Positions 45,443-61,439 of a stretch of DNA of 64,000 nucleotides are shown here, one piece after another. Position 1 is the stretch's first letter. The number at the start of each line of letters is the position of its first letter. A program made the position numbers and the translations under genes. This stretch comes from a virus: the IMG/VR virus record IMGVR_UViG_3300032288_005579; one strand, written 5' to 3'. The notes beneath the pieces were generated by a model, which saw nothing but the letters and a program-made list of their open reading frames with translations, was not told where the DNA came from and ran no database searches.

Positions 45443-48400
45443 GTGGCGTACATACAATTAGAAAACATACTTGGGGTACCTATAGAAATTTTCGTAAGGA
45501 ACCAAATTAGGAATAGGAGCAGCAGGATCTCATCAACTAATTCTAATTGGAACGAAGACGATACCATAAAATATAAGGCCAACCGAACCGGATGGGTGAG
45601 GCTAGTTTCTGGGGTCGACGTCAACGAAGAGAATCTCATGAAAACGTATGGTCTCTCAGATCCAAGCGATTTAGCCAAGAGTTTCGTTCTCATGGGAGGA
45701 ACTTCTAAATATAAGACAAGGACAGTTAAACCATATAAATACGATCCCGATAGTTCAGAAGAATACAATCTTAAGTGGCAAGCAGAAGCTCCTGAGATAA
45801 CTGAGTTTGACGGGTATTCCCTAAGATCGGGTTTTCAAGACACATACAACCTTTTCGGAGCAGACGAACTCAACAGTTTCGGTTACAGACCCATGCCCGG
45901 TATAAAGTCTGTGAAGATAACTACAGCTGGTAAATTGGGATCCATAAAAACTGCGAACATCTCATTCACTGTCAACAGTAAGTCCCAGCTCGACGTCATA
46001 GACATATTGTATTTCAAATTGGGATACATGATGTTCTTGGAGTGGGGAAACACAATGTACGTGGACACTAAAGGTGTTGTAAAATCCTCTGAAGAGTACA
46101 GCATAGATCCGTTCGAAGTCGGAATGGACAAAGACAGGTTGAGAGCGAAGATACTAAAATCCATTAAAGAGTCTGACGGAAATTACGACGCCATGATAGG
46201 CATAGTCACGAACTTCAACTTCTCTTTCAAGGACGGATCCTACAGCTGCGAATTGTCCCTCATGGGACTCGGTGTTTTGGCGGAGTCCATGAGGATGAAC
46301 AACACCGCTACGCAGTACCCCGAATTGCTTCGAAACACGATAAAAGATTTAGTGAATCTCAGAAACGCAGAAATAGAAGAGACAAAAAGGAAAGCTAGAG
46401 AGAAAGCCTTAAAACAATTGAACGCGCAATTCGCGGTTGAAGGAACTCCTATAAAAGCGAGTCAATTAGCCCAACCTGAAAATGCTTCGAAGTTCGGATT
46501 CACGGTCTTGTACACTTTCAATAATTCGAATGAAAATCGGCTCCTAGCTAAGGATTACTATTTTAAAGATGCAGGTGGAAATGATTTTTTGATAATAAAT
46601 CAATTTCAAACAGGAGACGATTCAAAAGCCATATCAGGAAAAGCTCAAATGAGACTTAACACGATAACAAACACGTACGAATACTCTGATGCGGCTGAAA
46701 ACTATAAAGTACAAATATCTTCTGATAAAATAGATAAAGTATTTAAAATATATGACTCTTCGTACAACGCAGCAGATATAAAAGCTGTCGCAGCCGAATC
46801 TTTAGATTACACAAATATAGAAATTAGCGTCAAAGAGGGAGGTTTACAATTTCCAATTTGGTATGGAAAAGACAATCCAAACTATTCAGCAATTCCAAAA
46901 AAATACGATGGAAGTTCTGCGCGCATAAAAAACGATTACACGGAAAAGTTTGAATTTTTTGCAGCTGGAAATGGTGATAAGTGGTGGTACTATCATTATT
47001 TAACCAAGGCGAATATACGATTTACTTTGGGAAGTATAGACATCAAAGTATCAAATTTTCCTATAAGACTCACAGAAACCTCAGAAGGCATAGTTGAAGC
47101 AGGAATTAATCGAAGAGTTAGATTCGAGGAAGGAAAATTGTATGACTTCACGTCAGATTTTAATAAATTACGAGACTTGATGCTCATAATATTTAGTAGA
47201 GTAAAATATACAGAATCGACAAAATTTGGATTTGAAATAAGCCGAGGAAGTGCAAGCGATATCATACAATATTCCTGTCAATTCTCCGTAAACATATCTG
47301 ATTTCCAAGACATTCTTAATACTGGGATAGAAGGTCCTATATACACAAATTCTAGTTTAAACAGTCCTGAAGATAATTCTCCTCTTTATAGAAGAGATAA
47401 AGCACCGGAAGCTTATGGACAAATAAAATTAGAAATACAAAATTTACTATTAAATGAAACTTTCAATTTTTCAATAACAGCATCTACTACTGACAGCGCT
47501 TTCTTGCAAAATCTAAATATTGTAAACGGTATTACTTTATCTCCATCAAAAAAAATAAGGATATTCTCTGATGCAGGTACATTTACAACTGATTCTGATG
47601 CGGCAAGACAGGCAGAAGAAGAAGCCATAGACGAATTGGGAGACAAAGGTAAAAAATTGGATGCTAATGAAGTCCAGAGTTACGAAGCTTCCCGTTATTC
47701 TTCTTATCTACAATTGATGTTAAGGGGAGTACAACTCTACAGTTACGCTAAAGTAAGTAAAAAAGGACAAAGGTCGACGCTTAAACAAACTGCAAATCTA
47801 GCAGAGTACATAACCAACTTTATAAATCCTTCACCTACTCAAGGCAACAAATCCTCATCTGAGGATAAAAACTTCATAGACAATTTATTTGAGAACGGCG
47901 CTTTGAAAGTGTTAAAAAATGAAAATTACAATATAGGAAAATTCGTAAACGATACGTTACCTGAGAAAATCGATTTCGAAAACAACAGATATTACACAGA
48001 ATTGTCCTACGGTTTTGCAAGAATGATCATGAGATCCGAGGATCCATTGCTTTTGATTACTAAAGGCAAGCCAAAAGAAGAGGACGCAACAAACACGAAT
48101 AACGAGAATAAAAAAACAGAGCAATCTGAAGAAAACAAAGAGACCAAATTTATTCAGGGTCCCGTAAAGTTTGAAGATCTTATGGTCTCTTATGTCGTCC
48201 CTTACAACCAAGTTTCTCAAGACGCTTCAGCTACAGCAGAATTAAATTATCCCTGTTACATACCGCTCGGGTTTCTATTCATGATGTTCAACCACGTTAG
48301 TTTGCTGTACGAAAACGATAGTAAGAAAGGAGAAAAAGATAAAAATAGGCCTTTAGTTTACATAGATTTCAATCCCGACAGCAATCTTTGTTTAAGAAGC

Positions 48401-50323
48401 GGACAAACGCTAACGATAGATCCCTACAAATTTCTAGTGCCGTATCATGGAACATCTGAGCAATTTCAACAACTTTTTGACGACAACGTAAAGAAAGACG
48501 CAAAGACTTTAAAATCTCCTAAAGATACAAGCGCAAGAATTAAAGGAGCGGAAAACATTTGGGATCCCTCAAAACAAGACGGAATTTCTAAGTATTTACC
48601 GTCTTTTATAACTGACGATGCCGGTTACGGAGTGTACAAAGGGAAGTTAATGAACGTGCTTGTAAACGTATCGTACGTGCTTAGCATGATAGAAAACAAA
48701 ATACAAGCCGACGAATCCAATAGCTTGCTTCTGAAACCGACTTTGGAAGATTTGGTCATAGATCTCAATAGGTGTTTGGGAAGTTTTAACTATTTACGGG
48801 TAGGATACGATCAAGAAGCCAACGTATTTTACATAACAGACGATCAAAGCGTTCCTAGCGTGAATATGGTAGATAGACAAAAGTCAAACGGAGGGAAATA
48901 CGATTTGCCGCTTTACGGAAAAAATAGCATAGCGGAATCTTTCGATTTTAAAACAGAGTACGGTACTAAGTTAGCTAACCTACTCGCTATAGCGGCGAAT
49001 TCTGATACGGGAGGAGAAGAAGGATCTTCGACAGCGGGAAAAGAAGTCAGCACAATAGCCAAAGCAAACAAGGGACTTGTAAATAGGTACGCGCCTGTCA
49101 TAGGAGCCGTTAACGAACCAAAACCCAAAGAAAATAAAGATCAAAAAGACGCTGCTGAATCCACGTCTAAATCTCAAGAACCAAACGATACAACGAAATT
49201 GGCGGCTCTGCAATTCAACAACGCGATAAAAAGTTTTTACTCTGAGTTAAATAACAGTTCCCAAGACAAAGTCAATCTTTGTACGAACTACTATTTAGAC
49301 AGATTGACTAAAACAAAAACAAAAGATCCGTCTACGAACTCTTCGGCGATGATTCCGTTGACTCTAAACTTTACCACAGACGGAATTTCAGGATTATACA
49401 TGGGCAACGCTTTCACCGTTAGCGAAGATATTTTGCCTTACAGTTTCAATAGAACAATAAAATCAACCGATGCAAACGGAGACGGAGAAGTCACTACTAG
49501 AACTCTCGGATTCATTATCACCGGATTGGATCACAGCATAGAGAACAATCGATGGAAGACGAGCGTCAAAGCGAACATGTACTATTTAAAATCTTTGACA
49601 GATTACAGCGCTGAAACTAGGAATTTATCACAGGATACGGGTGGTATAACTGTAGATCAAAAAGCTCTGGCTGAGGCTAAAAAAGCGCAAATACCCGAGG
49701 GTGAAACTCCAATGAGTACAGATAATTTTGGAATAGGTAAAAAGTATCACTCAAATTATGAGTTTAAACGTGGTACTTCAAACATCGATTTGTCTAAGAT
49801 GGGTCTTAGTGCTTTATCAGATAGCGAAATAAACGATGTTACAAACGAAAATAGATTTAATTTCGGGACAATACCCAGTCCAGTACAATACTTTGTTGTT
49901 CACCACACAGCCGGATGTCAAGCTTGCGGATATCAAGGAACAGTAAAAACGTTCTACGATAGAGGGTTACCAGTTCAATACATAATAGATAGAGACGGAT
50001 CGATATACAGATTCTTGCCGGATGGAGCTAAGGGACAGCACACGTACCCAGGTAAAGTTAACGGAAAAACCATAAGTAATTCAAATTCTATAGGAGCTGA
50101 ATTGGTGTCTGCACTTGATAATGCAGATGCTAGCATAACAGACGCTCAAGTAAACTCTGCTATTAAGCTTATACACTGGTTGGGTATATCAAAAGAAAAC
50201 GTGTTTGGTCACGGAGAGGTGCAAACTACAGAGAATCTAAGAGCCGGCGGTTTCGACACTTCGTTCACTAAAGAGCCAAATGAAGGCGGTAAAGTGTGTA
50301 CAAAAATAAGAACGCAGGGATAA
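45443..50323 (+). CDS. Large baseplate hub protein with a C-terminal Amidase_2-type peptidoglycan hydrolase
   Basis: N-terminal GWVRLVSGV and RPMPGIKSV hub-like region. C-terminal YFVVHHTAG, VQYIIDRDG.I, NSNSIGAEL and VFGHGEV. Confidence 0.75.
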   Translation: MAYIQLENILGVPIEIFVRNQIRNRSSRISSTNSNWNEDDTIKYKANRTGWVRLVSGVDVNEENLMKTYGLSDPSDLAKSFVLMGGTSKYKTRTVKPYKYDPDSSEEYNLKWQAEAPEITEFDGYSLRSGFQDTYNLFGADELNSFGYRPMPGIKSVKITTAGKLGSIKTANISFTVNSKSQLDVIDILYFKLGYMMFLEWGNTMYVDTKGVVKSSEEYSIDPFEVGMDKDRLRAKILKSIKESDGNYDAMIGIVTNFNFSFKDGSYSCELSLMGLGVLAESMRMNNTATQYPELLRNTIKDLVNLRNAEIEETKRKAREKALKQLNAQFAVEGTPIKASQLAQPENASKFGFTVLYTFNNSNENRLLAKDYYFKDAGGNDFLIINQFQTGDDSKAISGKAQMRLNTITNTYEYSDAAENYKVQISSDKIDKVFKIYDSSYNAADIKAVAAESLDYTNIEISVKEGGLQFPIWYGKDNPNYSAIPKKYDGSSARIKNDYTEKFEFFAAGNGDKWWYYHYLTKANIRFTLGSIDIKVSNFPIRLTETSEGIVEAGINRRVRFEEGKLYDFTSDFNKLRDLMLIIFSRVKYTESTKFGFEISRGSASDIIQYSCQFSVNISDFQDILNTGIEGPIYTNSSLNSPEDNSPLYRRDKAPEAYGQIKLEIQNLLLNETFNFSITASTTDSAFLQNLNIVNGITLSPSKKIRIFSDAGTFTTDSDAARQAEEEAIDELGDKGKKLDANEVQSYEASRYSSYLQLMLRGVQLYSYAKVSKKGQRSTLKQTANLAEYITNFINPSPTQGNKSSSEDKNFIDNLFENGALKVLKNENYNIGKFVNDTLPEKIDFENNRYYTELSYGFARMIMRSEDPLLLITKGKPKEEDATNTNNENKKTEQSEENKETKFIQGPVKFEDLMVSYVVPYNQVSQDASATAELNYPCYIPLGFLFMMFNHVSLLYENDSKKGEKDKNRPLVYIDFNPDSNLCLRSGQTLTIDPYKFLVPYHGTSEQFQQLFDDNVKKDAKTLKSPKDTSARIKGAENIWDPSKQDGISKYLPSFITDDAGYGVYKGKLMNVLVNVSYVLSMIENKIQADESNSLLLKPTLEDLVIDLNRCLGSFNYLRVGYDQEANVFYITDDQSVPSVNMVDRQKSNGGKYDLPLYGKNSIAESFDFKTEYGTKLANLLAIAANSDTGGEEGSSTAGKEVSTIAKANKGLVNRYAPVIGAVNEPKPKENKDQKDAAESTSKSQEPNDTTKLAALQFNNAIKSFYSELNNSSQDKVNLCTNYYLDRLTKTKTKDPSTNSSAMIPLTLNFTTDGISGLYMGNAFTVSEDILPYSFNRTIKSTDANGDGEVTTRTLGFIITGLDHSIENNRWKTSVKANMYYLKSLTDYSAETRNLSQDTGGITVDQKALAEAKKAQIPEGETPMSTDNFGIGKKYHSNYEFKRGTSNIDLSKMGLSALSDSEINDVTNENRFNFGTIPSPVQYFVVHHTAGCQACGYQGTVKTFYDRGLPVQYIIDRDGSIYRFLPDGAKGQHTYPGKVNGKTISNSNSIGAELVSALDNADASITDAQVNSAIKLIHWLGISKENVFGHGEVQTTENLRAGGFDTSFTKEPNEGGKVCTKIRTQG

Positions 50324-51154: not shown

Positions 51155-51167
51155 CCCAACAGATAGA

Positions 51168-51197
51168 TTTACATTTAGAGAACGAATTGGTTATGTT
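51168..51197 (+). promoter_or_regulatory. Putative early/middle promoter TTTACA-N18-TATGTT
   Basis: Upstream of the mini-PolA gene. The same -35 hexamer occurs at two other replication-module sites. Confidence 0.55.
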
Positions 51198-51215
51198 GCA
51201 ACAAAGGTTTTGACA

Positions 51216-52502
51216 ATGCACTTCTTAGTAGAAAACAAACAACAGTTCGACAGGCTCTCTCCGCAGAGCGAATGCTTTGTACAAGTAGTTCCAAGCAGTT
51301 ACTCTTACCACCCAAAATTGGTGGATGTGTGTTTAGTGTACTATCGCAACATAGAAAAGGGTTACATATTCGCTATAAAGCACAGCGAAACAGCCGGCGT
51401 AGACACTGATCTCGTAGTTCAGTTTTTGAAGAAACACGACCGGGTTTTTGTGCTCGATAGAAAATTTCACTCTTACTTCTTGGATCCAAAAAATTTGGTG
51501 GACATTAAGTTCGAAACTCCTGAATCTGACTCTAAATCCCAGCTTAGAACATCCATACAGTTAGACTACGAGAAAAGATTTTCTGATAAAGAGAATTGCA
51601 ACGAACTCATACCTGTCACCAAGCATTACGAGCACTTAGAAAACGTTTACGATTATTACAAGAATTATTTCTTTAATTGCGGAGATCATTCGTCAATAAA
51701 TAAAGTAGTCGATGCTTACTTTTACGTGGAGAACAGTAGGGTTGGTGTTAAGGACTGTTTCTTTGATGAATTTACTGTGCACAATAAAAAACACTCGTAC
51801 GAAGACGGTGGAGTGTACACGCACTACAACATGTATAACCAAACAGGTCGACCGACGAATACGTTCAACGGAGTAAATTTTTTGGCTATACCCAAAGAAG
51901 ACCATTATAGGACATGTATAATTCCTAAAGCTGATTATTTAGTAGAATACGATTTTGACGGTTATCACATAAGACTCATAGCTAATGAACTTGGCGTTGA
52001 GCTACCAAAGACCTCCATTCACGAGCATCTAGGAAAGCAATACTTCCAAAAGCAAGAGCTCACAGAGGAGGAATACAAACAATCCAAAACCATAACCTTC
52101 AGACAACTTTACGGTGGAGTCATGGAGGAATATAGGCACATAGAGTTGTTTTCTAAGATGGAAAGCATGATAGATTCGCTCTGGAAACAATACAATTCGA
52201 ACAAAGTATTACGTCTTCCTACAGGAATTTATCTGTTCTACGACGTTACCATGACTCCTTACAAGGTCTTCAACTATTACGTACAGAACCTAGAAACTAA
52301 AAACAATTCTGAGAAGATCCTTGCCGTTAAAGAGCTTTTAAAGGGAAAAGGCACAGAATTGGTACTAATAACGTACGATGCATTCCTGTTTGACTTCTCA
52401 GTGTCAGACGGTAAGGAGCTTCTGTGTTCCATAAAGGAAACCCTAGAGTCCGGGGGCTTCCCAGTTAAACACAAATACGGTAAGGACTATATTTTACAGT
52501 GA
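51216..52502 (+). CDS. Miniature, divergent family A DNA polymerase-like protein
   Basis: YNMYNQTGRPTN (TxTGRL-like), motif A EYDFDGYHIRL, motif B KTITFRQLYG and motif C ITYDAFLFD. ATG 51216 or TTG 51210. Confidence 0.75.
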   Translation: MHFLVENKQQFDRLSPQSECFVQVVPSSYSYHPKLVDVCLVYYRNIEKGYIFAIKHSETAGVDTDLVVQFLKKHDRVFVLDRKFHSYFLDPKNLVDIKFETPESDSKSQLRTSIQLDYEKRFSDKENCNELIPVTKHYEHLENVYDYYKNYFFNCGDHSSINKVVDAYFYVENSRVGVKDCFFDEFTVHNKKHSYEDGGVYTHYNMYNQTGRPTNTFNGVNFLAIPKEDHYRTCIIPKADYLVEYDFDGYHIRLIANELGVELPKTSIHEHLGKQYFQKQELTEEEYKQSKTITFRQLYGGVMEEYRHIELFSKMESMIDSLWKQYNSNKVLRLPTGIYLFYDVTMTPYKVFNYYVQNLETKNNSEKILAVKELLKGKGTELVLITYDAFLFDFSVSDGKELLCSIKETLESGGFPVKHKYGKDYILQ

Positions 52503-52523: not shown

Positions 52524-52955
52524 ATGGTTGCAGAATTTGAAAACATAGAACTTACAAAAGAAATGCTAAAAAATAAGCTACTCTGTACTTTTACTACAGA
52601 AGACAATCTAGAGGAGCTACTAGAGAACATAAGTAGAGAGTACAAAATACTCTACAACAAGATATTTGTGCTCTCCTCCCCGGATTCAAAGGAATTGATC
52701 TGTACCTACAACATAGATACAGAAGAGACACTTCCTAGAATAATGAAAAACACCATACTGGTTCACAGAAAAAAGGACACTAATACGCTGTACACCATAA
52801 ATTCTTTAAACGCGCTTATACTCGAGCTGAACAACGGCGTATTGGACACTAAATTCCCCATCACGTGGGAAAACTACAGAAACTCCATCTTATTGGTACA
52901 AGACACAAAATTCAGGAAGCTAAATACAGAAGTAAAGAAAATCGTGAACTTGTAA
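52524..52955 (+). CDS. Hypothetical protein
   Basis: 143-aa globular ORF (NKLLCTF, CTYNID, VHRKKDTNTLYTINSLN) with no function recognised. Confidence 0.75.
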   Translation: MVAEFENIELTKEMLKNKLLCTFTTEDNLEELLENISREYKILYNKIFVLSSPDSKELICTYNIDTEETLPRIMKNTILVHRKKDTNTLYTINSLNALILELNNGVLDTKFPITWENYRNSILLVQDTKFRKLNTEVKKIVNL

Positions 52956-53016: not shown

Positions 53017-53799
53017 ATGGACATTTCGCAATTGAGAAATCGACTCGCGTCCCTGCAAAACCCGAAAGCTTCGGGCAGAGGTGAGTTGAAAAAGACGCTT
53101 TGGTCCCCTACAGTAGGTAAACATTCCGTTAGGATCGTTCCTTCGCTGTTCGACAAAGCAAATCCCTTCAAAGAACTTTACTTTCACTACGAATTCGGTA
53201 AGACGATGATTTCGCTTACCAACTTCGGAGAAAAGGATCCCATCGTGGAGTTTGCACAGGGATTGAGAAAATCATCTAACAAAGAGGATTGGCAACTTGC
53301 CAAAAAGCTGGAGCCGAAACTCCGCATCTTCGCTCCCGTAATCGTACGTGGAGAAGAGGATAAAGGCGTTCTGCTTTGGGGATTCGGCAAGCAGATCTAC
53401 ATGGATTTGCTTTCCATCGCTGAAGACGAGGACGTTGGCGATTACACCGATCCTGTACAGGGACGAGACATCACCATCGAAACTCTGGACAAGGCAAGCA
53501 CAGGTTTGACTTACGACAAATCCACAGTTCGCATTCGCACAAAGGTAACGCCTCTGTCTGCGAAAGCAGAAGAAGCGAAGAAGTGGTTATCAGAACAACC
53601 TGATCCGATGACGCAATTCAAACGCTACTCTTACGACGAGATGAAAGCGGCTTTGTTGGGATATTTGAATCCTGAAAGCGAAGCTGAACAATCAGTCGCT
53701 TCTCCTAATCCTCCTGAAGAACCAAAAGCACAAGCTTACACCTTGAGCACAACTAAGGCGGACACCAAATCAAAAATCGACGATCTGTTTGAATTCTAA
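53017..53799 (+). CDS. gp32: Single-stranded DNA-binding protein, gp32-like
   Basis: LWSPTVGKHSVRIVP, ELYFHY, DPIVEF, LLWGFGKQIY, DYTDPVQGRDI and acidic tail IDDLFEF. Confidence 0.85.
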   Translation: MDISQLRNRLASLQNPKASGRGELKKTLWSPTVGKHSVRIVPSLFDKANPFKELYFHYEFGKTMISLTNFGEKDPIVEFAQGLRKSSNKEDWQLAKKLEPKLRIFAPVIVRGEEDKGVLLWGFGKQIYMDLLSIAEDEDVGDYTDPVQGRDITIETLDKASTGLTYDKSTVRIRTKVTPLSAKAEEAKKWLSEQPDPMTQFKRYSYDEMKAALLGYLNPESEAEQSVASPNPPEEPKAQAYTLSTTKADTKSKIDDLFEF

Positions 53800-53831: not shown

Positions 53832-54917
53832 ATGGCGAAAAAAGCAAGCTTAAACGACGCGGTCGCTGCGGTCGTAAAGGACAAGTCTCAGTTCAATCTT
53901 GAAAGTTTCAAGAAAGGAAAGAACCTGAGCACAACATCAGTAAAGTTCAAGGACCAGAAATGGATTCCACTGTCTAAGGCGTTTCAAGACACGCTTCAGA
54001 TCCCTGGAATTCCTATGGGCCACATCACACTTTTAAGGGGTCACTCAGACACCGGCAAAACAACAGCGATGTTGGAAGCCGCTATCCAGTGTCAAAAGAT
54101 GGGCATATTGCCTGTCCTTCTTATAACCGAAATGAAGTGGTCGTGGGAGCACGCCAGAGAGATGGGGTTGCAGTTCGATGAAGTACCAGATACCGATACG
54201 GGCGAGATATTGGACTACAAGGGGTTCTTCCTGTACATCGACAGGGAAAAGCTGAATTGTATAGAGGACGTTAGTGCTTTCATCATGGATATCCTTGACG
54301 AACAGAAGCGAGGAAACCTTCCTTACGATCTGTGTTTCTTCTGGGATTCCGTGGGTTCCATTCCTTGCAGATTATCCATTGAATCGAACAAGAACAACAA
54401 CGAATGGAACGCTGGTGCCATGTCTCAACAGTTCGGTAATTTTGTAAACCAGAAGATCGTTATGTCAAGGAAAGAAAGCTCTCCTTACACAAACACCTTC
54501 GTAGCAGTCAACAAAGTTTGGGTCGCAAAGCCCGAAACGATCATGAGCCAACCTAAGATGAAAAACAAGGGTGGAGATACTATGTTCTTCGACTCATCGA
54601 TGGTCATTACTTTCGGTAACGTCACAAGTTCGGGCACAAGCAAACTCAAAGCCACCAAAGGCGGCAAAGAGATTGAGTTCGCTAAGCGTACTAAAATATC
54701 TTGCGATAAGAACCACGTTACTGGCGTAACCGGGGTTGGACGCGTCATTGTCACAGTTCACGGTTTCATCTCAGAAGAAAAGCGAGAGCTCGACGATTAC
54801 AAGAAGCAGTATTCCCACCAGTGGTTAAAGGTTCTTGGTTCCAAGGATTTTGATGTCATCGAAGAGGAAGACAATTCACAGGCGGCCGATATATTCGACC
54901 AATCAGAAAACGATTAA
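53832..54917 (+). CDS. uvsX: RecA/UvsX-like recombinase
   Basis: IPMGHITLLRGHSDTGKTT (Walker A), FWDSVG (Walker B), VAVNKVW and KNKGG. Confidence 0.88.
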   Translation: MAKKASLNDAVAAVVKDKSQFNLESFKKGKNLSTTSVKFKDQKWIPLSKAFQDTLQIPGIPMGHITLLRGHSDTGKTTAMLEAAIQCQKMGILPVLLITEMKWSWEHAREMGLQFDEVPDTDTGEILDYKGFFLYIDREKLNCIEDVSAFIMDILDEQKRGNLPYDLCFFWDSVGSIPCRLSIESNKNNNEWNAGAMSQQFGNFVNQKIVMSRKESSPYTNTFVAVNKVWVAKPETIMSQPKMKNKGGDTMFFDSSMVITFGNVTSSGTSKLKATKGGKEIEFAKRTKISCDKNHVTGVTGVGRVIVTVHGFISEEKRELDDYKKQYSHQWLKVLGSKDFDVIEEEDNSQAADIFDQSEND

Positions 54918-55943
54918 ATGACTCCTGAACAAAAGAAGATCTTCGACTCTCTTTCACAGAAGCAAGAGCCGGAAGAACAGCTAACGCTCGATAGTCGTGT
55001 GTTGGTTGTAGACGCACTTAACACATTCATGAGGGCGTTTGCTGTCATACGGCACGTCAATCACAATCTGACACCGATAGGTGGTCTCACCGGTTTTTTG
55101 CGGTCCGTAGGATACGCAATCAATGTGGTGAGACCCACACGGGTCATAGTGGTTTTCGACGGTCAAGGATCTTCGACTAACAAGCGTTACATCTACCCAG
55201 AGTATAAAGCGAACAGACATCTCAGACGCATAACAAATTGGGACCACTTCGAAACTCAAGAAGCGGAATCAGAAGCGATCATCAATCAAGTCGTAAGGCT
55301 CGTTCATTACCTGAAGTGTTTACCGGTCGACGTATTGACGATCGATAAGATAGAAGCGGACGATGTGATAGGATACTTAGCACAGAGGGTAGGAAAACAG
55401 ACAACGATAATGTCTAGCGATAGAGACTATCTACAATTGGTCAGCGATCGCATAACCGTGTTTTCCCCAACCAAGAAAAAGTTCTACACACCAGATCTTG
55501 TGTTGAAAGAATACGGAGTAACTCCCGAAAATTTCCTAATACAAAAGATGTTGTTAGGTGATTCTGGTGACAACGTACCTGGTGTAGTGGGCTTGGGACC
55601 AAAGACTCTGATAAAAGAGTTTCCTGAACTAGGAAAAATCGATAAAGTTACGCTTAACGAAATACTGGAGAAGTGTGAATCTGGAAAAAAGAAGGTTCAC
55701 GGATCGATAAGAAATTTTAAGAGTCAATTGGAGATCAACAAACTATTGATGGACTTGGAAAATCCTAACATACCAGAGGAATCGATAAAAGATATAGAAA
55801 ATTGCATACTCGAGCCCTATAAGCAGTTTAATTCCCAGGAATTTGTTAAGTTGTATAATGAAGACGATTTAGGAAACAGCATACCCAACTTACAGGCATG
55901 GTTGTTCAATCACTTCCACATACTATCTAAATATAAAGCATGA
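54918..55943 (+). CDS. 5'-3' exonuclease / flap endonuclease (T4 RNase H, PolI N-terminal type)
   Basis: VVDALN, VVFDG, YPEYKANR, IEADDVIG, SSDRD and GDSGDNVPGV.GLGPKT. Confidence 0.92.
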   Translation: MTPEQKKIFDSLSQKQEPEEQLTLDSRVLVVDALNTFMRAFAVIRHVNHNLTPIGGLTGFLRSVGYAINVVRPTRVIVVFDGQGSSTNKRYIYPEYKANRHLRRITNWDHFETQEAESEAIINQVVRLVHYLKCLPVDVLTIDKIEADDVIGYLAQRVGKQTTIMSSDRDYLQLVSDRITVFSPTKKKFYTPDLVLKEYGVTPENFLIQKMLLGDSGDNVPGVVGLGPKTLIKEFPELGKIDKVTLNEILEKCESGKKKVHGSIRNFKSQLEINKLLMDLENPNIPEESIKDIENCILEPYKQFNSQEFVKLYNEDDLGNSIPNLQAWLFNHFHILSKYKA

Positions 55944-57316
55944 GCACACTAAATACGTTACAACAGTACGGAGTTTCATTTCAAATCAAGGTTCTGTCGT
56001 CCTTGTTAAAACACAAAGAGTTCTTACACAACATTTACGACATCCTAAATCCAGACGAGTTCGATAATCCCTCTCACAAGTGGATCATCAAAGAGACTCT
56101 GAAATACTATTCGAAGTATCATACGAATCCCACTCCTGAGTATCTCTCTGTCGAAGTTAAGAAGATCGATAACGACGTTCTTAAGATCAGCGTAGCGGAA
56201 CAAATCAAAGAAGCTCTTAAAGCCATCAACGAAGATCGCGAATACGTAGAGACAGAGTTCAGTAACTTCTGCAGAAATCAACAACTAAAGAAGGCTTTGA
56301 TGTCTTCAGTAGAACTGCTCACTAAGGGACAGTACGATGACATCAGATCGATGATCGATACTGCGTTAAAAGCTGGTCAAAGCCGGGACATCGGACACGA
56401 GTACGAAAAAGATGTAGAAACAAGATACAGATCTGAAGAGAGAAAAGCAGTTCCCACAGTTTGGCCTCACGTAAATAATTTATTGATGGGAGGTCTAGGA
56501 GCAGGAGATCTTGGCATAGTACTAGGATCACCAGGTGGTGGAAAATCTTGGTTTCTAATAAACTTAGGCGCTGCTGCAGTCAAAGCTGGTTACAACGTGT
56601 GTCACTACACTTTGGAACTTTCACAAGACTACGTTGGTAAAAGATACGATTCTACCTTTACGGGTATTGAATTCCAAAGGATACACCTTCATAGAGAAGA
56701 AATCGAAAAGGTGGTCAATGCTCTACCAGGAAAGTTGATCATCAAAGAGTATCCGATGGGAAAAACTACACCATCTACCATAGAAACTCACATACAAAAG
56801 TGTGAGACCATAGGATTCAAACCCGATCTTGTCATTATAGACTACGTGGATCTCTTAAGATCTAAGATGAAATCCACTGAGAGGAAGGACGAGATAGACG
56901 ATGTTTACACTTCCATAAAAGGCTTGGCCAGGCAGATAAAAACGCCGATCTGGACAGTCTCTCAAGTGAATAGGATGGGATCTAAAGATGACATCATCGA
57001 AGCCGATAAAATCGCTGGATCTTACGATAAGATCATGATCGCAGACTTCGCAATGTCGCTTTCCAGAAAGCGCTCTGATAAACTGAATGGAACTGGTAGG
57101 ATACACATAATCAAAAACAGATTCGGTGCCGACGGTATGACATTTTCTGCAGTTATAAACACTTCAAATGGACATATTGACATAAGTAACACAGAAATTG
57201 ACGATTCAGAGCTCCAGGTAGAAGACAATCCGGTCAGAACAATGCAGAATAGAATACAGTTAGCTGGGGAAGAGAAAAAATACTTAGCAAACAAATTTTA
57301 TGAGTTAGGCTTATAA
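55940..57316 (+). CDS. Replicative helicase, DnaB/gp41 family
   Basis: GSPGGGKS, YTLEL, IIDYVDLL, WTVSQVNR and IIKNRFG. Confidence 0.92.
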   Translation: MSTLNTLQQYGVSFQIKVLSSLLKHKEFLHNIYDILNPDEFDNPSHKWIIKETLKYYSKYHTNPTPEYLSVEVKKIDNDVLKISVAEQIKEALKAINEDREYVETEFSNFCRNQQLKKALMSSVELLTKGQYDDIRSMIDTALKAGQSRDIGHEYEKDVETRYRSEERKAVPTVWPHVNNLLMGGLGAGDLGIVLGSPGGGKSWFLINLGAAAVKAGYNVCHYTLELSQDYVGKRYDSTFTGIEFQRIHLHREEIEKVVNALPGKLIIKEYPMGKTTPSTIETHIQKCETIGFKPDLVIIDYVDLLRSKMKSTERKDEIDDVYTSIKGLARQIKTPIWTVSQVNRMGSKDDIIEADKIAGSYDKIMIADFAMSLSRKRSDKLNGTGRIHIIKNRFGADGMTFSAVINTSNGHIDISNTEIDDSELQVEDNPVRTMQNRIQLAGEEKKYLANKFYELGL

Positions 57317-57697: not shown

Positions 57698-58675
57698 ATG
57701 AGCAAATTATTTACGAAACGGGTTAACATTCTACCATACGACTATCCGTCGTTACTTAAATACAAAGACGCAATACGACACTCCTACTGGATAGATACGG
57801 AGTACAATTTCACTACAGACATAAACGACTTCATGGTCAATATCACCGAAAACGAAAGGGAGGTGATCAAACGTACCATGCTTGCCATAGCTCAAATAGA
57901 AGTCAACGTTAAAACCTTTTGGGCAGACATGTACAAGCGTATGCCGATCACAGAGATCGGTGACGTAGGCATGACATTCGCAGAGTCAGAGGTTAGGCAC
58001 AAGGACGCATACGCTCGCCTCCTAAGGATCCTTGGTTTGGAGGATGAGTTCAAGACTGTTGTGGAAATCCCAGCCATTAAAGATAGGATCAAGTATCTAA
58101 GCAAATACTTAGACGGTACTCGCAGCACAGACAACAAGATGTACACTAAGTCCGTACTGCTGTTCTCTCTGTTCATCGAGCATGTGTCACTATTCTCCCA
58201 GTTTCTCATCATGATGTCCTTTAATAAAGACCGTAACGTCTTTAAAGGGATATCTAACGTGGTTGAAGCCACATCGAAGGAAGAAGACATACACGGTAAC
58301 TTCGGTGCAGAGATCATTAACATCATCAAGCAAGAGAATCCCGAGTGGTTCGATTCTGAGTTCGAAGCTCTAATAGACACCGCATGTAATAAAGCATATA
58401 AAGCCGAGTGTAAGATCCTTGACTGGATCTTTGAACACGGCGAATTAGACTTCCTACCAAAGACAACTATCCAGCATTTCATTAAGAATCGCTTCAATAA
58501 CTCTTTGAAAAAGATCGGTATGGAACCCATATTCGAAGTAGATTCCGATGAGATAAAGAAAACCAAGTGGTTTGAGATAGAGACCACATCCACAAAAGAA
58601 GGAGACTTCTTCTACAAGAAACAGATCGACTACTCGAAGAAACAAAAAGCCATAACAGAAGACGATTTGTTCTAA
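57698..58675 (+). CDS. nrdB: Ribonucleotide reductase class I small subunit
   Basis: AQIEVNVK.FW, ESEVRHKDAY, IEHVSLFSQF and EEDIHG (di-metal ExxH ligands), with C-terminal DFF...Y. Confidence 0.95.
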   Translation: MSKLFTKRVNILPYDYPSLLKYKDAIRHSYWIDTEYNFTTDINDFMVNITENEREVIKRTMLAIAQIEVNVKTFWADMYKRMPITEIGDVGMTFAESEVRHKDAYARLLRILGLEDEFKTVVEIPAIKDRIKYLSKYLDGTRSTDNKMYTKSVLLFSLFIEHVSLFSQFLIMMSFNKDRNVFKGISNVVEATSKEEDIHGNFGAEIINIIKQENPEWFDSEFEALIDTACNKAYKAECKILDWIFEHGELDFLPKTTIQHFIKNRFNNSLKKIGMEPIFEVDSDEIKKTKWFEIETTSTKEGDFFYKKQIDYSKKQKAITEDDLF

Positions 58676-58726
58676 TAATGAATTAAATACTATACATTAA
58701 TTGATAACCACTACTTAGTGAATTAT

Positions 58727-60355
58727 ATGCTATACAAAGATTACTACTGGTTGAATGATGAGGCGAGAACATTTCTCTCTCGTGGATACATAACTGAGAC
58801 TGCAGAAGATAGGATCAAAGAGATAGCTACCGTTGCAGAGAAATACCTTGAGATAAAGGGATTCGCTGAGAAGTTCGAGCGTTATATGGCTAAGGGCTAC
58901 TATAGTCTAGCCACCCCAGTATGGATAAACTTCGGTAAAGACAAAGGCCTTCCCATCTCATGTTACGGTTCTTGGATAGACGACTCTCTTGAGAGCATGC
59001 TAACAACAGCAAGAGAAATAGGCATGATGTCGAAATACGGTGGTGGAACATCAGCGTACCTCGGCAACATCCGCCCTAGAGGATCAGATATCAGTACTGG
59101 AGGCAAAGCAGACGGACCTATACACTACGCTCGATTGTACGATACTGTAGTAGATGTTTGTAAACAATCAGAGGCTCGTCGCGGAGCTTGCGCAGTGTAT
59201 CTGCCTATAGAGCACAGCGACATAATGGAATTTCTTGACATTGGCAGCGAAGGCAACCCCATACAGAACCTACAGTACGGAGTTACAATCGGTGATCAAT
59301 GGCTTTCTGAAATGAAAGCTGGTGACCCTGTTAAAAGAAAAGTTTGGGCTAAGGTTATCCAACGCCGCTCGGAGTTCGGGTATCCTTACCTACTTTTCAG
59401 GGACAATGCAAATAAAAACACGCCGTACAAGGAACTAGGTTATAAAATCACCGCAAGCAACCTGTGTTCGGAGATCATGTTACCCACAGACTCTGATAAC
59501 TCTTTCGTTTGTTGCATAGGTTCAATAAACCTATTGCACTGGGAAGAGATAGAGAAAACGGATGCTATTGAGGTGTATACACAATTCCTCAATGCTGTGA
59601 TGGACGAATTTATAATGAAGTCTCACAAACCCGGATTACAGCGCGCTTGGAATTTTGCGCTGAGTCACAGAGCCATCGGAGTGGGAGTATTAGGATACCA
59701 TTCATTCCTACAGTCTAAACTAATTCCTTTCGAATCTATACAAGCAAAACAGTGGAATGATAGGATATTCAAAGTGCTGAAGCAGAGAACAGAGGCCGCT
59801 TCCAAAGATCTCTATTTAAACGATCAAGAGAGATACGAGTGCATGAGACCGGGATTTGCTAACACCACACTGATAGCTATTGCACCAACAAAGTCCTCTT
59901 CTTTTATCTTGGGTCAAGTAAGCATGGGTATCGAACCCATCAAATCTAATTACTTCGTGAAAGATCTTTCTAAGATCAAGACGGTGTACAAAAACCCGCA
60001 CTTGCTAGAAGAACTGAAGAAGTATAATATGGATACTGAGGAAGTGTGGGATAGTATCATGAAGAAGGACGGATCCGTACAGCACTTGGATTTCCCCACC
60101 AAAGAGGTTTTCAAAACCTTCCTTGAGATATCACCAAAAGAGATAATTATTCAAACTGCTCAGCGTCAAAAATACATAGACCAATCCCAGTCTGTGAACC
60201 TGATGATTCACCCTACGATACCTGCAAAGGACATCAATCAACTTTATTTGTATGCTCATGAAGAGGGTGTAAAAACCCTTTATTATCAGTATTCACAGAA
60301 TTCTGCCCAAGCATTTGCTAGAAACATATTAGAATGCGTAAACTGCGAGGCTTAA
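58727..60355 (+). CDS. nrdA: Ribonucleotide reductase class I large subunit, compact, no ATP cone
   Basis: ATPVW.NFG, PISC, SKYGGG, SNLCSEI, IAPT.SSS, QKYIDQSQSVNL, KTLYY and C-terminal CVNC. ATG 58727 or GTG 58718. Confidence 0.95.
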   Translation: MLYKDYYWLNDEARTFLSRGYITETAEDRIKEIATVAEKYLEIKGFAEKFERYMAKGYYSLATPVWINFGKDKGLPISCYGSWIDDSLESMLTTAREIGMMSKYGGGTSAYLGNIRPRGSDISTGGKADGPIHYARLYDTVVDVCKQSEARRGACAVYLPIEHSDIMEFLDIGSEGNPIQNLQYGVTIGDQWLSEMKAGDPVKRKVWAKVIQRRSEFGYPYLLFRDNANKNTPYKELGYKITASNLCSEIMLPTDSDNSFVCCIGSINLLHWEEIEKTDAIEVYTQFLNAVMDEFIMKSHKPGLQRAWNFALSHRAIGVGVLGYHSFLQSKLIPFESIQAKQWNDRIFKVLKQRTEAASKDLYLNDQERYECMRPGFANTTLIAIAPTKSSSFILGQVSMGIEPIKSNYFVKDLSKIKTVYKNPHLLEELKKYNMDTEEVWDSIMKKDGSVQHLDFPTKEVFKTFLEISPKEIIIQTAQRQKYIDQSQSVNLMIHPTIPAKDINQLYLYAHEEGVKTLYYQYSQNSAQAFARNILECVNCEA

Positions 60356-60416: not shown

Positions 60417-61439
60417 ATGAAATTAGAAAAATACGAAAAACTAAAACAGCGGTTAGAGGTTCTCAAACTAGAGAAAAACTTTTTCCCGCTTAACACAACC
60501 CTGTATTGGTTTTCCTTTCTTGGAAACATCTTCTTGATTTACTTTGGTTACTTCTTCATAAGAACGATTACAGACACACTGCCTGACTTATTCCCATACC
60601 AGGATGAATTTTTTATGGTGTTTATTGCTCTATTCCTTTCTGGATACGAGCTCACTAAAAGATTTGTAATAGATCAGACCGCGAATTCTTTAGTGGGTCC
60701 TAAAAAATCTTTGAGTTTTGGAGTTGTATTCGGCGTATTAGCCTCATTGTTTCTAATAGGAGGATCTTTTTACATGTCCATAAAGGGCGCTCATAGACTT
60801 GTGGACAACAAGGATGTCATAACAGCGCAAATAGATTCAGTATCCACTAAAAAAATAGAAGACATCTCGGCTTATTACGATAAAGAAATAGCTTTCTATA
60901 GATCTCAACCTGCGCGCACACGCACTGATCGAATGTATAGAGATTCTATAGTCTCAAGTCTTCAGGTTCAAAAGGACACAAAAATAACCGAAGAAGAAAA
61001 TAAACAGGAGTTTAAAGCTGGTGATTCTTTGGCAGAGAACGAAGAGAACGATTTTGCTTTCATGATCATAACGGTGTTTTTAGAGGCGATAGTCATACTC
61101 GGTGTTGGATTTAATTCCTTCTATACGGTATCGACATACGAAGAGACGGGTAAGCTACTACAAACACCAAAGTACCGTCAATACATGAACAACCTCCAAC
61201 TCTTGAAGATGTATTACGCCAATGGTAAAAAAGAACCTGGGGAATTGACGCTATCATTCACAAAACTTGCATCTCTCGTTAAGAATCAAAAGCTGGGAAT
61301 ATCAAATTCAGAGGTAAAAGATTTTATATCGATGTGCACAGAACTTGGAATATGCAAAGAAATGCAGAACAAGCGTAAGCAACTTGTGATGACCTACGAA
61401 GACGCGAAAAAAGCTCTTCAAAAGGACGACATATTTTAG
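60417..61439 (+). CDS. Multi-pass membrane protein with a coiled-coil loop
   Basis: Three or four hydrophobic segments, a charged helical loop and a soluble C-terminal domain. Confidence 0.7.
   Translation: MKLEKYEKLKQRLEVLKLEKNFFPLNTTLYWFSFLGNIFLIYFGYFFIRTITDTLPDLFPYQDEFFMVFIALFLSGYELTKRFVIDQTANSLVGPKKSLSFGVVFGVLASLFLIGGSFYMSIKGAHRLVDNKDVITAQIDSVSTKKIEDISAYYDKEIAFYRSQPARTRTDRMYRDSIVSSLQVQKDTKITEEENKQEFKAGDSLAENEENDFAFMIITVFLEAIVILGVGFNSFYTVSTYEETGKLLQTPKYRQYMNNLQLLKMYYANGKKEPGELTLSFTKLASLVKNQKLGISNSEVKDFISMCTELGICKEMQNKRKQLVMTYEDAKKALQKDDIF

Follow-up and report, generated by a model that had tools for sequence, protein, structure and literature searches.

A second, miniaturised family A polymerase of the divPolA1 type in a large uncultured aquatic phage

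The window (the whole 64-kb stretch of viral DNA analysed here) encodes a second, miniaturised family A polymerase of 428 aa besides its main PolA of 769 aa. This observation, made earlier from the letters alone, is confirmed by the ORF and by the match of both a structure model and a family profile to Klenow. The product is another copy of divPolA1 and belongs to a published type, not a new kind: the family was defined in 2024 by computer analysis, with 14 genomes in the paper and Flavobacterium phage immuto as its prototype (Yutin et al., Virol J 2024;21:200, PMC11348598; bioRxiv 10.1101/2024.04.26.591309). We consider it moderately probable that divPolA1 is active as a DNA polymerase of low processivity and without proofreading, and that it extends 3' ends over short stretches as part of a replication-recombination module. 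The two polymerase genes are as follows.

51216-52502, plus strand: divPolA1 gene, 428-aa miniaturised family A polymerase (ORF and translation)
61452-63761, plus strand: full-length family A DNA polymerase, 769 aa, with an intact proofreading domain (Pfam)

A divPolA1 gene is expected to show homology to known members, an extra regular polymerase, downstream replication genes, the palm residues, a truncated thumb and an inactivated exonuclease, in tailed phages of 155-190 kb. These features were found for the gene at 51216-52502, and it sits with the regular PolA on a contig of 186,914 bases. The reading frame runs from ATG 51216 to TGA 52502 (428 aa). Starting from the TTG in frame at 51210 would give two more codons, but homologues begin at ATG 51216. 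By tblastn the protein is 35% identical to immuto gene 1 over residues 1-427 (E 2e-73), the match lying at MW353176 positions 1-1323, which is annotated as 'DNA polymerase family A', and the gene order of the locus is identical to that of immuto. The kinship is faint in single-sequence searches: PHROGs and the PDB gave no match to the 428-aa protein, and Pfam PF00476 scores it at 15.8 bits, below the threshold of 34.3. The immuto copy reaches 43.9 bits with its pieces summed, and a PDB search with the family profile finds Klenow at E 3e-11. A recent duplication of the phage's own PolA was considered and rejected, as hhalign gives the family profile a probability of 1.6% against the 769-aa PolA and aligns palm and fingers alone. 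The sequence-only reading knew of no characterised member; this stands for biochemical characterisation, which no member has received, but the family itself was already in print.

The family is far larger than as published. At 50% identity, 1037 divPolA1 clusters are found with E <= 1e-3 and 446 with E <= 1e-30, a number far beyond chance, and members beyond the paper include Microcystis phage Mel-JY01 and a 484-kb phage. The divPolA1 family is large and old, common to phages of Flavobacteria, phages of cyanobacteria and a 484-kb phage. No fused or longer forms were seen among proteins of 750-2140 aa, an absence that says little about function. Two ORFs of 1626 aa, equal in length, are unrelated to each other.

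The AlphaFold2 model of the 428-aa protein (pLDDT 95.7, pTM 0.93) aligns with Klenow at Z 21.5 and rmsd 3.4 over 417 aligned residues. The best 49 Foldseek matches are all family A DNA polymerases, and Z is 19.5-22.2 against DNA polymerases of this family and 7.9-9.3 against single-subunit RNA polymerases; these values, together with the exonuclease-fold N-terminus, led us to reject a T7-type RNA polymerase identity. Pol nu and Pol theta are matched by the model with Z 20.2 and 17.7, respectively, the family profile reaching Pol theta marginally (E 0.02-0.16). We know of no natural enzyme of the Klenow type smaller than divPolA1 with a fold that is complete and modelled with confidence. The thumb is shortened, as had been suspected: the profile alignment leaves about 90 residues of Klenow (roughly 558-646) unmatched, in a gap between chain positions 234 and 323. 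Residues 176-199 of the model form short elements only, and helix 229-232 (4 residues) aligns to the last thumb helix of Pol I, 684-692 (nine residues). In the account given in PMC10061031 of Minnick et al. 1996, truncation of the Pol I thumb lowers processivity and fidelity and leaves catalysis unaffected.

Ahead of the thumb lies a domain in which the earlier reading had seen no clear Exo motifs.

51216-51743, plus strand: N-terminal domain (aa 1-176), 3'-5' exonuclease (DnaQ/RNase D) fold without catalytic carboxylates

The carboxylates are indeed gone, but that description was incomplete, as a DnaQ-type exonuclease fold is retained over residues 1-176 (VIA-align: ExnV1 Z 10.9, RNase D Z 9.6-10.8). 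Mapping of residues from the spacing of motifs and from secondary structure shows strand 1 (aa 19-26) without a conserved Asp or Glu after it, and Leu or Phe at aa 85, the Exo II Asp position. A published structure-guided alignment likewise shows an exonuclease fold without its catalytic carboxylates (PMC11348598).

Active-site conservation was assessed across 136 representatives whose pairwise identity has a median of 32%, and motifs were numbered by aligning the family profile to Klenow in the PDB.

51837-51860, plus strand: motif 2 (NQTGRPTN), aligned to TGRLSS, with R212 on Klenow R668
51939-51983, plus strand: motif A (LVEYDFDGYHIRLIA), aligned to Klenow DYSQIELR
52074-52115, plus strand: motif B / O helix (YKQSKTITFRQLYG), with K758, F762, Y766 and G767 retained and Tyr at R754
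52263-52298, plus strand: motif 6 (KVFNYYVQNLET), aligned to AINAPMQGTAA, with N353 on N845 and Q357 on Q849
52365-52394, plus strand: motif C (LITYDAFLFD), with the catalytic D388

Within motif A (DFDGYH), D246 (51951-51953) falls on D705 and H251 (51966-51968) on E710. Motif B places Y287, K291, F295, R296 and Y299-G300 on R754, K758, F762, G763 and Y766-G767, and in motif C (YDA) Y387, D388 and A389 fall on H881, D882 and E883. The first readings of motifs A, B and C, including Tyr at R754 and Arg at G763, are therefore all correct in the Klenow alignment. R212 (equivalent to R668, which reads the minor groove at the primer terminus), D246, K291, Q357, E360 and D388 are invariant in 136/136 representatives, and conservation is about 96% or more at H251 (134/136), F295 (130/136), Y299 (133/136) and Y387 (134/136); G300 is kept in 122/136 and N353 in 113/136. 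E360, three residues past the Q849 equivalent, is a family-specific invariant Glu.

The catalytic Asp would be expected to vary among homologues if selection on them had been relaxed. Both D246 and D388 are invariant among the 136 representatives despite the median identity of 32%, which argues for a specialised second family A nucleotidyltransferase, as the sequence-only reading had put it, and not a decayed copy. Its other branch, a catalytically weak accessory factor, is now unlikely because of the same invariance. Terminal addition is also unlikely, as the equivalents of R668, N845 and Q849, readers of the primer-template minor groove, are kept. Around these constant residues the nucleotide pocket has changed: the canonical steric-gate Glu of Pol I, the O-helix Arg754 and the HDE of motif C are all replaced. 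Position 251 is His in 134/136 and Gln in 2/136; position 287 is Tyr in 102/136 and Arg in 9/136; position 389 is Ser in 102/136 and Ala in 32/136, so that motif C reads YDS or YDA in 134/136. The three replaced features mark canonical Pol I chemistry, not membership of family A. Since R754, E710 and E883 are replaced family-wide, ordinary dNTP use is an assumption. We know of no characterised polymerase with such a pocket (His as steric gate, no Arg754 and no second motif C carboxylate).

Directly downstream of divPolA1 lies a module whose order is the same in the window, 80 IMG/VR loci, immuto and Mel-JY01.

52524-52955, plus strand: partner gene directly 3' of divPolA1, 143-aa acidic protein with an invariant HRKK..NTLYTIN..LN
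53017-53799, plus strand: gp32-like ssDNA-binding protein (SSB; Pfam gp32 E 8e-11; PHROG 1192), syntenic in all loci
53832-54917, plus strand: UvsX/RecA-like recombinase (Pfam RecA E 7.6e-6; PHROG 97, UvsX-like), syntenic
54918-55943, plus strand: stand-alone 5'-3' exonuclease (flap endonuclease, FEN, of the Pol I N-terminal type; Pfam 5_3_exonuc_N E 1e-30, 5_3_exonuc E 3e-10), syntenic
55940-57316, plus strand: DnaB-type replicative helicase (Pfam DnaB_C E 8.5e-22; PHROG 19 E 2e-79)
57698-60355, plus strand: ribonucleotide reductase (RNR), small subunit 57698-58675 (Pfam Ribonuc_red_sm E 2e-55) and large subunit 58718-60355 (Pfam Ribonuc_red_lgC E 6e-97)

The module is conserved in 80/80 IMG/VR loci and one cyanophage. 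A partner of about 140 aa directly follows divPolA1 in every IMG/VR locus with enough sequence, in immuto and in Mel-JY01, and a reverse search from the partner finds divPolA1 directly upstream in 78/79 loci, the remaining one being at a contig end. The partner is the better conserved of the two (45-73% identity across loci, with divPolA1 at 35-52%). Its model (pLDDT 87.6; pI 5.5) matches PDB structures of the ferredoxin-like/ACT/RRM type with Z of 5.7 at most and over residues 11-87 only, among them the SV40 T-antigen origin-binding domain (Z 5.4), a match not usable for function. Pfam gave a sub-threshold FecR_C match only and PHROGs none; the sole BFVD match is one uncharacterised phage protein and ESM Atlas scores reach 0.79 at most, neither of them usable. 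No OB fold was matched in the structural searches of BFVD and the PDB, where the PDB matches cover residues 11-87 only.

Upstream of divPolA1, an early-type promoter of its own had been claimed.

51155-51215, plus strand: intergenic gap of 61 nt with one weak sigma-70-like candidate site

The gap does hold one candidate, TTTACA-18-TATGTT at 51168-51197, with 9/12 positions matched, but shuffled sequence yields about as many sites of this kind (15.5 +/- 3.8) as the region itself (17), so a promoter of its own is no more than a possibility.

The regular polymerase of the window carries Pfam DNA_pol_A (E 1.4e-68) and DNA_pol_A_exo1 (E 1.3e-12) domains and is 54% identical to the PolA of immuto. 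The corresponding enzyme differs among relatives: PolA in immuto and G001, PolB in Mel-JY01, and both PolB and PolIII alpha in LR756508. A full-length proofreading polymerase is kept by every complete or near-complete relative examined. The divPolA1 enzyme is strictly conserved while the neighbouring main replicase swaps among families A, B and C. It is divPolA1, not the regular polymerase, that sits in a replication context, and the role of the regular polymerases has been called 'less obvious' (PMC11348598).

In the reading that we prefer, divPolA1 is a Klenow-type polymerase trimmed in every subdomain, with the palm, the fingers and both metal-binding Asp retained. It probably works within the module made up of divPolA1, the 140-aa partner, the gp32-like SSB, UvsX, the flap endonuclease and DnaB. 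Its job would likely be the extension of 3' ends over short stretches, on invading strands in UvsX D-loops, on primers or in Okazaki gaps (the latter processed jointly with the stand-alone flap endonuclease), the specific substrate among D-loop, primer and gap being suggested by the neighbouring genes only. Bulk, proofread synthesis would fall to the full-length polymerase, which is interchangeable: of family A in this phage and of B or C in relatives. The family-wide changes in the nucleotide pocket (His, Tyr, Ser/Ala and the extra Glu) imply a tuned, non-standard pocket. The enzyme bears on the limit to which Pol I can be trimmed, on His at the sugar gate and on the split of labour between two polymerases in large phages.

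The main rival explanation, which we regard as unlikely, is a PolA-derived primase or initiator. Like the CcPol-MP pair of staphylococcal SCCmec elements, divPolA1 and the 143-aa partner would then serve the DnaB helicase by de novo initiation of DNA (or RNA) chains on ssDNA covered with SSB. In that precedent, a trimmed polymerase of family A turns into a primase once bound to a small partner (PMC7581432, PMC10061031, PMC10201439); the partner is encoded between polymerase and helicase, and the thumb and its last helix are shortened (PMC7581432). The pairing of divPolA1 with the 143-aa protein is likewise strict in both directions, with SSB and DnaB downstream, the helix aligned to Pol I 684-692 has just 4 residues, and the triphosphate-binding Arg754 and the steric gate are changed family-wide. 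However, the partner is acidic (pI 5.5) and without an OB-fold match, unlike MP, an SSB that has the OB fold and a basic cleft (PMC10061031), and the residues of divPolA1 that read the minor groove at an existing primer terminus do not vary. CcPol by itself is an ordinary primer-dependent polymerase, so the resemblance of divPolA1 rests on the partner. The earlier remark that no primase is visible holds for the 64-kb window, where no homologue of the immuto primase was found, but it reflects the limits of the window: a DnaG-type primase is conserved in complete relatives, lying far from the divPolA1 module in immuto (annotated; DNAG_N 26.2 bits), in Mel-JY01 and in one IMG/VR relative (Toprim_2 29.3 bits). 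This weakens the idea that the 428-aa enzyme replaces a missing primase, and divPolA1 need not be one. The related view that divPolA1 and its partner of about 140 aa form a two-subunit initiator, which starts or seeds DNA chains for the DnaB replisome, strikes us as rather unlikely; such an initiator might act de novo or from D-loops or R-loops, and its His gate might let ribonucleotides in. If true, a primase/initiator would have arisen from family A once more, independently of CcPol-MP, and its carriers would be large aquatic phages of a very abundant group.

Because the 2024 paper places divPolA1 in the replication context, the division of labour could also be the reverse of the one proposed here. 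In that case divPolA1 would be the true replisome polymerase, made processive by the partner and helicase and proofread in trans, leaving repair or some other task to the swappable regular polymerase. It is divPolA1 that heads the SSB/UvsX/FEN/DnaB module in every relative and stays constant as the family of the regular enzyme varies, the role of the latter being 'less obvious' by context (PMC11348598), and in immuto an 'exonuclease' gene adjoins the primase. Yet an enzyme without proofreading and with nearly no thumb is a poor fit for genomes of 160-190 kb, neither a clamp nor any other factor for processivity has come to light, and a full-length proofreading polymerase is present in every complete or near-complete relative examined, so we hold this reversal to be improbable. 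The altered pocket could instead suit non-standard nucleotides, either ribonucleotides or the phage's own modified bases, which seems to us very improbable. His replaces the steric-gate Glu in 134/136, motif C is YDS or YDA, akin to the HDS of T7-type RNA polymerases and not to HDE, and DNA modification occurs in relatives, immuto having a 7-deazaguanine gene set; but the changed residues contact sugar and phosphate, not base, His matches Glu in bulk and may still keep out a 2'-OH, and the structure is much nearer to DNA polymerases than to RNA polymerases. That divPolA1 is without catalysis and serves as a structural or regulatory subunit is hardly conceivable. Such a role would fit the absence of R754 and E883 and the sub-threshold Pfam score (15.8 against 34.3 bits), but pseudo-enzymes lose catalytic residues, and here, at a median identity of 32%, both catalytic Asp and the equivalents of K758, Y766, R668 and Q849 show little or no variation.

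Compared with published divPolA1, as in immuto, the present copy shows no essential difference: size, downstream genes, the adjoining regular polymerase, palm residues, thumb truncation and the inactivated exonuclease fold are the same, and it comes from an uncultured phage. With Pol I/Klenow, divPolA1 shares the two-domain architecture and fold, and motifs 2, A, B, 6 and C align. It differs in length (428 against about 600 residues), in the loss of about 90 thumb residues and the exonuclease carboxylates, in the changes of E710 to His, R754 to Tyr, H881 to Tyr and E883 to Ser/Ala, and in an invariant Glu added after Q849. The repair polymerases Pol nu and Pol theta have a family A fold and an inactive exonuclease-like domain in common with divPolA1, but they are larger, with a thumb and insertion loops, and retain the steric-gate Glu. 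A PolA-derived palm and fingers are also found in divPolA2 of barbaviruses and in the RNA polymerases of T7, mitochondria and N4. Motif C without the second carboxylate, YDS in divPolA1 relatives, recurs in divPolA2 and single-subunit RNA polymerases, that of T7 RNA polymerase being HDS. The single-subunit RNA polymerases have no exonuclease fold and possess promoter-binding parts that divPolA1 is without. In divPolA2 the N-terminal domain is unrelated and the gene context varies (PMC11348598).

Like divPolA1, CcPol of the CcPol-MP pair of SCCmec is a trimmed family A enzyme with a shortened thumb (Bebel et al. 2020, PMC7581432; Rice 2023, PMC10061031), and in both systems a small partner gene comes next, followed by ssDNA-binding and helicase functions. 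The exonuclease fold of CcPol is partly lost, whereas divPolA1 keeps the entire fold in a dead form. MP, an SSB with an OB fold, is basic; the partner of divPolA1 is acidic and has no OB match. The CcPol-MP helicase is Cch/MCM-like, while that of divPolA1 is of the DnaB type and co-exists with a DnaG primase in relatives. CcPol-MP is found on islands of Bacillota and divPolA1 in phages of aquatic bacteria.

The phage genes of the window form one long, co-directional block. Structural genes extend up to a tail protein, behind which the 428-aa ORF (divPolA1) heads the replication genes:

45443-50323, + strand, 1626-aa tail protein with a C-terminal amidase
51216-52502, + strand, divPolA1, 428-aa ORF translated from ATG (51216) to TGA (52502)
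52524-52955, + strand, acidic 143-aa partner protein (pI 5.5)
61452-63761, + strand, regular 769-aa family A polymerase (PolA) with an intact proofreading domain

Between the partner and PolA lie, in order, a gp32-like SSB, a UvsX-like recombinase, a stand-alone 5'-3' exonuclease, a DnaB-type helicase and a ribonucleotide reductase. The closest cultured relative, Flavobacterium phage vB_FspM_immuto (immuto; Immutovirus, 160 kb), has the same gene order, with 54% identity in PolA and 35% in the small ORF. The 61-nt gap 5' of divPolA1 contains one sigma-70-like site (9 of 12 matches), a type of site that is not enriched in the region over shuffled sequence. As the probable host group relies on other promoter signals, the early-type promoter first proposed for this gene is a possible one.

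The tail protein adjoining the replication block upstream ends in an N-acetylmuramoyl-L-alanine amidase domain (Pfam Amidase_2, E 1e-13) and is probably a tail-associated cell-wall hydrolase; in most of the related loci, its gene and the next ORF (276 aa) keep synteny with divPolA1. Another 1626-aa ORF (22977-27857, + strand) consists almost wholly of degenerate 18-nt repeats (6 aa, TPTISV-like) over ~4 kb, with strongly negative GC skew (-0.34 to -0.40), and resembles a structural or decoration protein of mucin-like type, rich in Thr, Pro, Ser and Ile. The two ORFs are unrelated, their equal length being a coincidence.

As a single sequence, the 428-aa ORF scores 15.8 bits against Pfam DNA_pol_A (threshold 34.3). 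A family profile of 136 representatives matches Klenow in the PDB (E 3e-11), and the AlphaFold2 model (pLDDT 95.7, pTM 0.93) aligns with Klenow over 417 of 428 residues (Z 21.5, rmsd 3.4 A). Z-scores are 19.5-22.2 with other family A DNA polymerases and 7.9-9.3 with single-subunit RNA polymerases, and the Foldseek result is consistent with the former fold. Profile and model thus bear out the sequence-only reading of 51216-52502 as a second family A polymerase. Descent as a recent duplicate of the window's own PolA was ruled out by comparing the divPolA1 profile with the 769-aa protein.

The profile alignment reproduces the motif assignments first proposed (divPolA1 = Klenow): D246=D705 and H251=E710 in motif A; Y287=R754, K291=K758, F295=F762, R296=G763 and Y299=Y766 in motif B; and Y387=H881, D388=D882 and A389=E883 in motif C. 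It adds R212=R668, N353=N845 and Q357=Q849. The thumb is shortened as described, with ~90 Klenow residues of the protruding thumb helices lacking a counterpart, and a four-residue helix (229-232) stands where Pol I has its nine-residue last thumb helix. The N-terminus had been said to lack clear Exo motifs. The acidic residues are indeed gone, with no conserved acidic residue in the family at the Exo I position after strand 1 and Leu/Phe at the Exo II Asp, but structural alignment shows that the DnaQ/RNase D exonuclease fold itself persists over residues 1-176 (Z 9.6-10.9). Computationally, divPolA1 has its two-metal palm intact, retains Lys, Phe and Tyr in the O helix, keeps the Pol I residues that hydrogen-bond the minor groove at the primer terminus and the templating base pair, and has neither a proofreading site nor a thumb hairpin.

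Searched exhaustively, 1.84 billion cluster representatives yielded 1037 relatives with E <= 1e-3, of which 446 reach E <= 1e-30; almost all of the 1037 are 415-465 aa long. A word-indexed search returned 878, and at least 595 IMG/VR contigs carry one. Conservation was assessed in 136 full-length representatives (pairwise identity median 32%, minimum 23%). R212, D246, K291, Q357, E360 and D388 are unchanged in all 136, and F295, Y299 and Y387 are each at least 96% conserved. At position 251, 134 sequences have His and two have Gln; at 287, 102 have Tyr and nine have Arg; at 389, 102 have Ser and 32 have Ala. Relaxed selection on the catalytic Asp residues, named beforehand as refuting, is absent; both are strongly constrained, and the nucleotide-pocket changes are a family signature rather than decay.

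The family was described as divPolA1 by Yutin, Tolstoy, Mutz, Wolf, Krupovic and Koonin (bioRxiv 10.1101/2024.04.26.591309; Virol J 2024;21:200, PMC11348598) from 14 phages (155-190 kb), immuto_3-5A being the named example. They reported a conserved palm, a truncated thumb, an inactivated exonuclease domain, conserved downstream replication genes and, in each phage, an additional regular polymerase belonging to family A, B or C. The 428-aa protein shows every defining feature and is a further copy, so the finding is not new for this window. The earlier remark that no characterised member was known holds insofar as that paper reports no experiment, although the family itself was already published; a full-text search found no later literature using the name. 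As a family, divPolA1 merits an enzymologist's attention. It is about two orders of magnitude larger than the 14 published genomes.

Its range includes Microcystis phage Mel-JY01 (190 kb) and an uncultured 484-kb phage. The regular polymerase is PolA in immuto and a 136-kb IMG/VR contig, PolB with no regular PolA in Mel-JY01, and PolB plus PolIII alpha in the 484-kb phage, confirming the published pattern. No primase had been seen in the window, and these 64 kb contain no homologue of the immuto primase. The suggested search elsewhere located a DnaG primase outside the replication module in relatives: annotated in immuto 55 kb upstream of divPolA1 (DNAG_N 26.2 bits), with homologues in Mel-JY01 and one IMG/VR relative (Toprim_2 29.3 bits). 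This DnaG-type enzyme of ~306 aa is encoded far from the module; in immuto (MW353176.1 104402-106106) it adjoins a gene annotated 'exonuclease' that could supply proofreading in trans. Between reductase and PolA, immuto has a full set of genes for 7-deazaguanine DNA modification (FolE, QueD, QueE, QueC, QueF, DpdA; MW353176.1 18607-36971), whereas the window has a single gene (60417-61439, + strand) for a basic 340-aa protein (pI 8.2) with no match in a Pfam search, which two related IMG/VR contigs conserve in this position. DNA modification thus seems to differ among relatives that have divPolA1 in common.

In every IMG/VR locus that extends far enough, as well as in immuto and Mel-JY01, the partner gene comes directly after divPolA1. 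Searching from the partner side, divPolA1 was directly upstream in 78 of 79 further loci, the remaining one lying at a contig end. The partner is the better conserved of the two, with 45-73% identity where divPolA1 has 35-52% in the same loci. The partner has an invariant motif, HRKK..NTLYTIN..LN, and a model pLDDT of 87.6; no relatives were recognisable by Pfam, PHROGs or structure searches (BFVD, PDB, ESM Atlas). The protein may serve the polymerase as a subunit or an adaptor.

We suggest that divPolA1 is a distributive DNA polymerase that needs both a template and a primer. According to Minnick et al. 1996, as cited in PMC10061031, thumb deletion in Pol I leaves catalysis intact and lowers DNA affinity, processivity and frameshift fidelity. 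Its fixed position in front of the SSB, UvsX, flap endonuclease and DnaB genes suggests short-stretch synthesis at recombination and replication intermediates, and bulk copying would be left to the swappable proofreading polymerase. The enzyme might extend D-loops or primers, or it might fill gaps together with the separate flap endonuclease; in that last case the two would be a Pol I divided over two genes. That the protein is an active polymerase of this type is very probable, and the particular role, given activity, is about an even call; combining the two, we lean modestly towards the whole reading. The sequence-only reading is thus confirmed in observation and supported in part in interpretation.

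Its accessory-factor option fares worst: with the catalytic Asp under such strong constraint, a dead subunit is very unlikely. A specialisation for ribonucleotides or modified nucleotides, suggested by the resemblance of the His gate and YDS motif C to RNA polymerases, is improbable, since the enzyme stays constant while DNA modification systems vary between relatives. Slightly less improbable is that divPolA1 is the true replisome polymerase, the context of the regular enzyme being less replication-like according to PMC11348598.

The strongest rival to short-stretch synthesis, though still unlikely, is a primase or initiator role by analogy with CcPol-MP of SCCmec elements. The loss of Arg754, the SSB and helicase genes that come next, and the short helix 229-232 would fit, a shortened last thumb helix being said to give space for a 5' triphosphate (PMC7581432). 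Against it, a DnaG primase co-exists in relatives, the primer-terminus readers are invariant, and the partner is acidic with no OB-fold match. The strict pairing with that partner is nonetheless in its favour: CcPol, a trimmed family A enzyme with a shortened thumb, is alone an ordinary polymerase and makes DNA de novo with a small partner encoded between polymerase and helicase (PMC7581432; PMC10061031; PMC10201439), and here too a small protein, of 143 aa, follows a trimmed polymerase.
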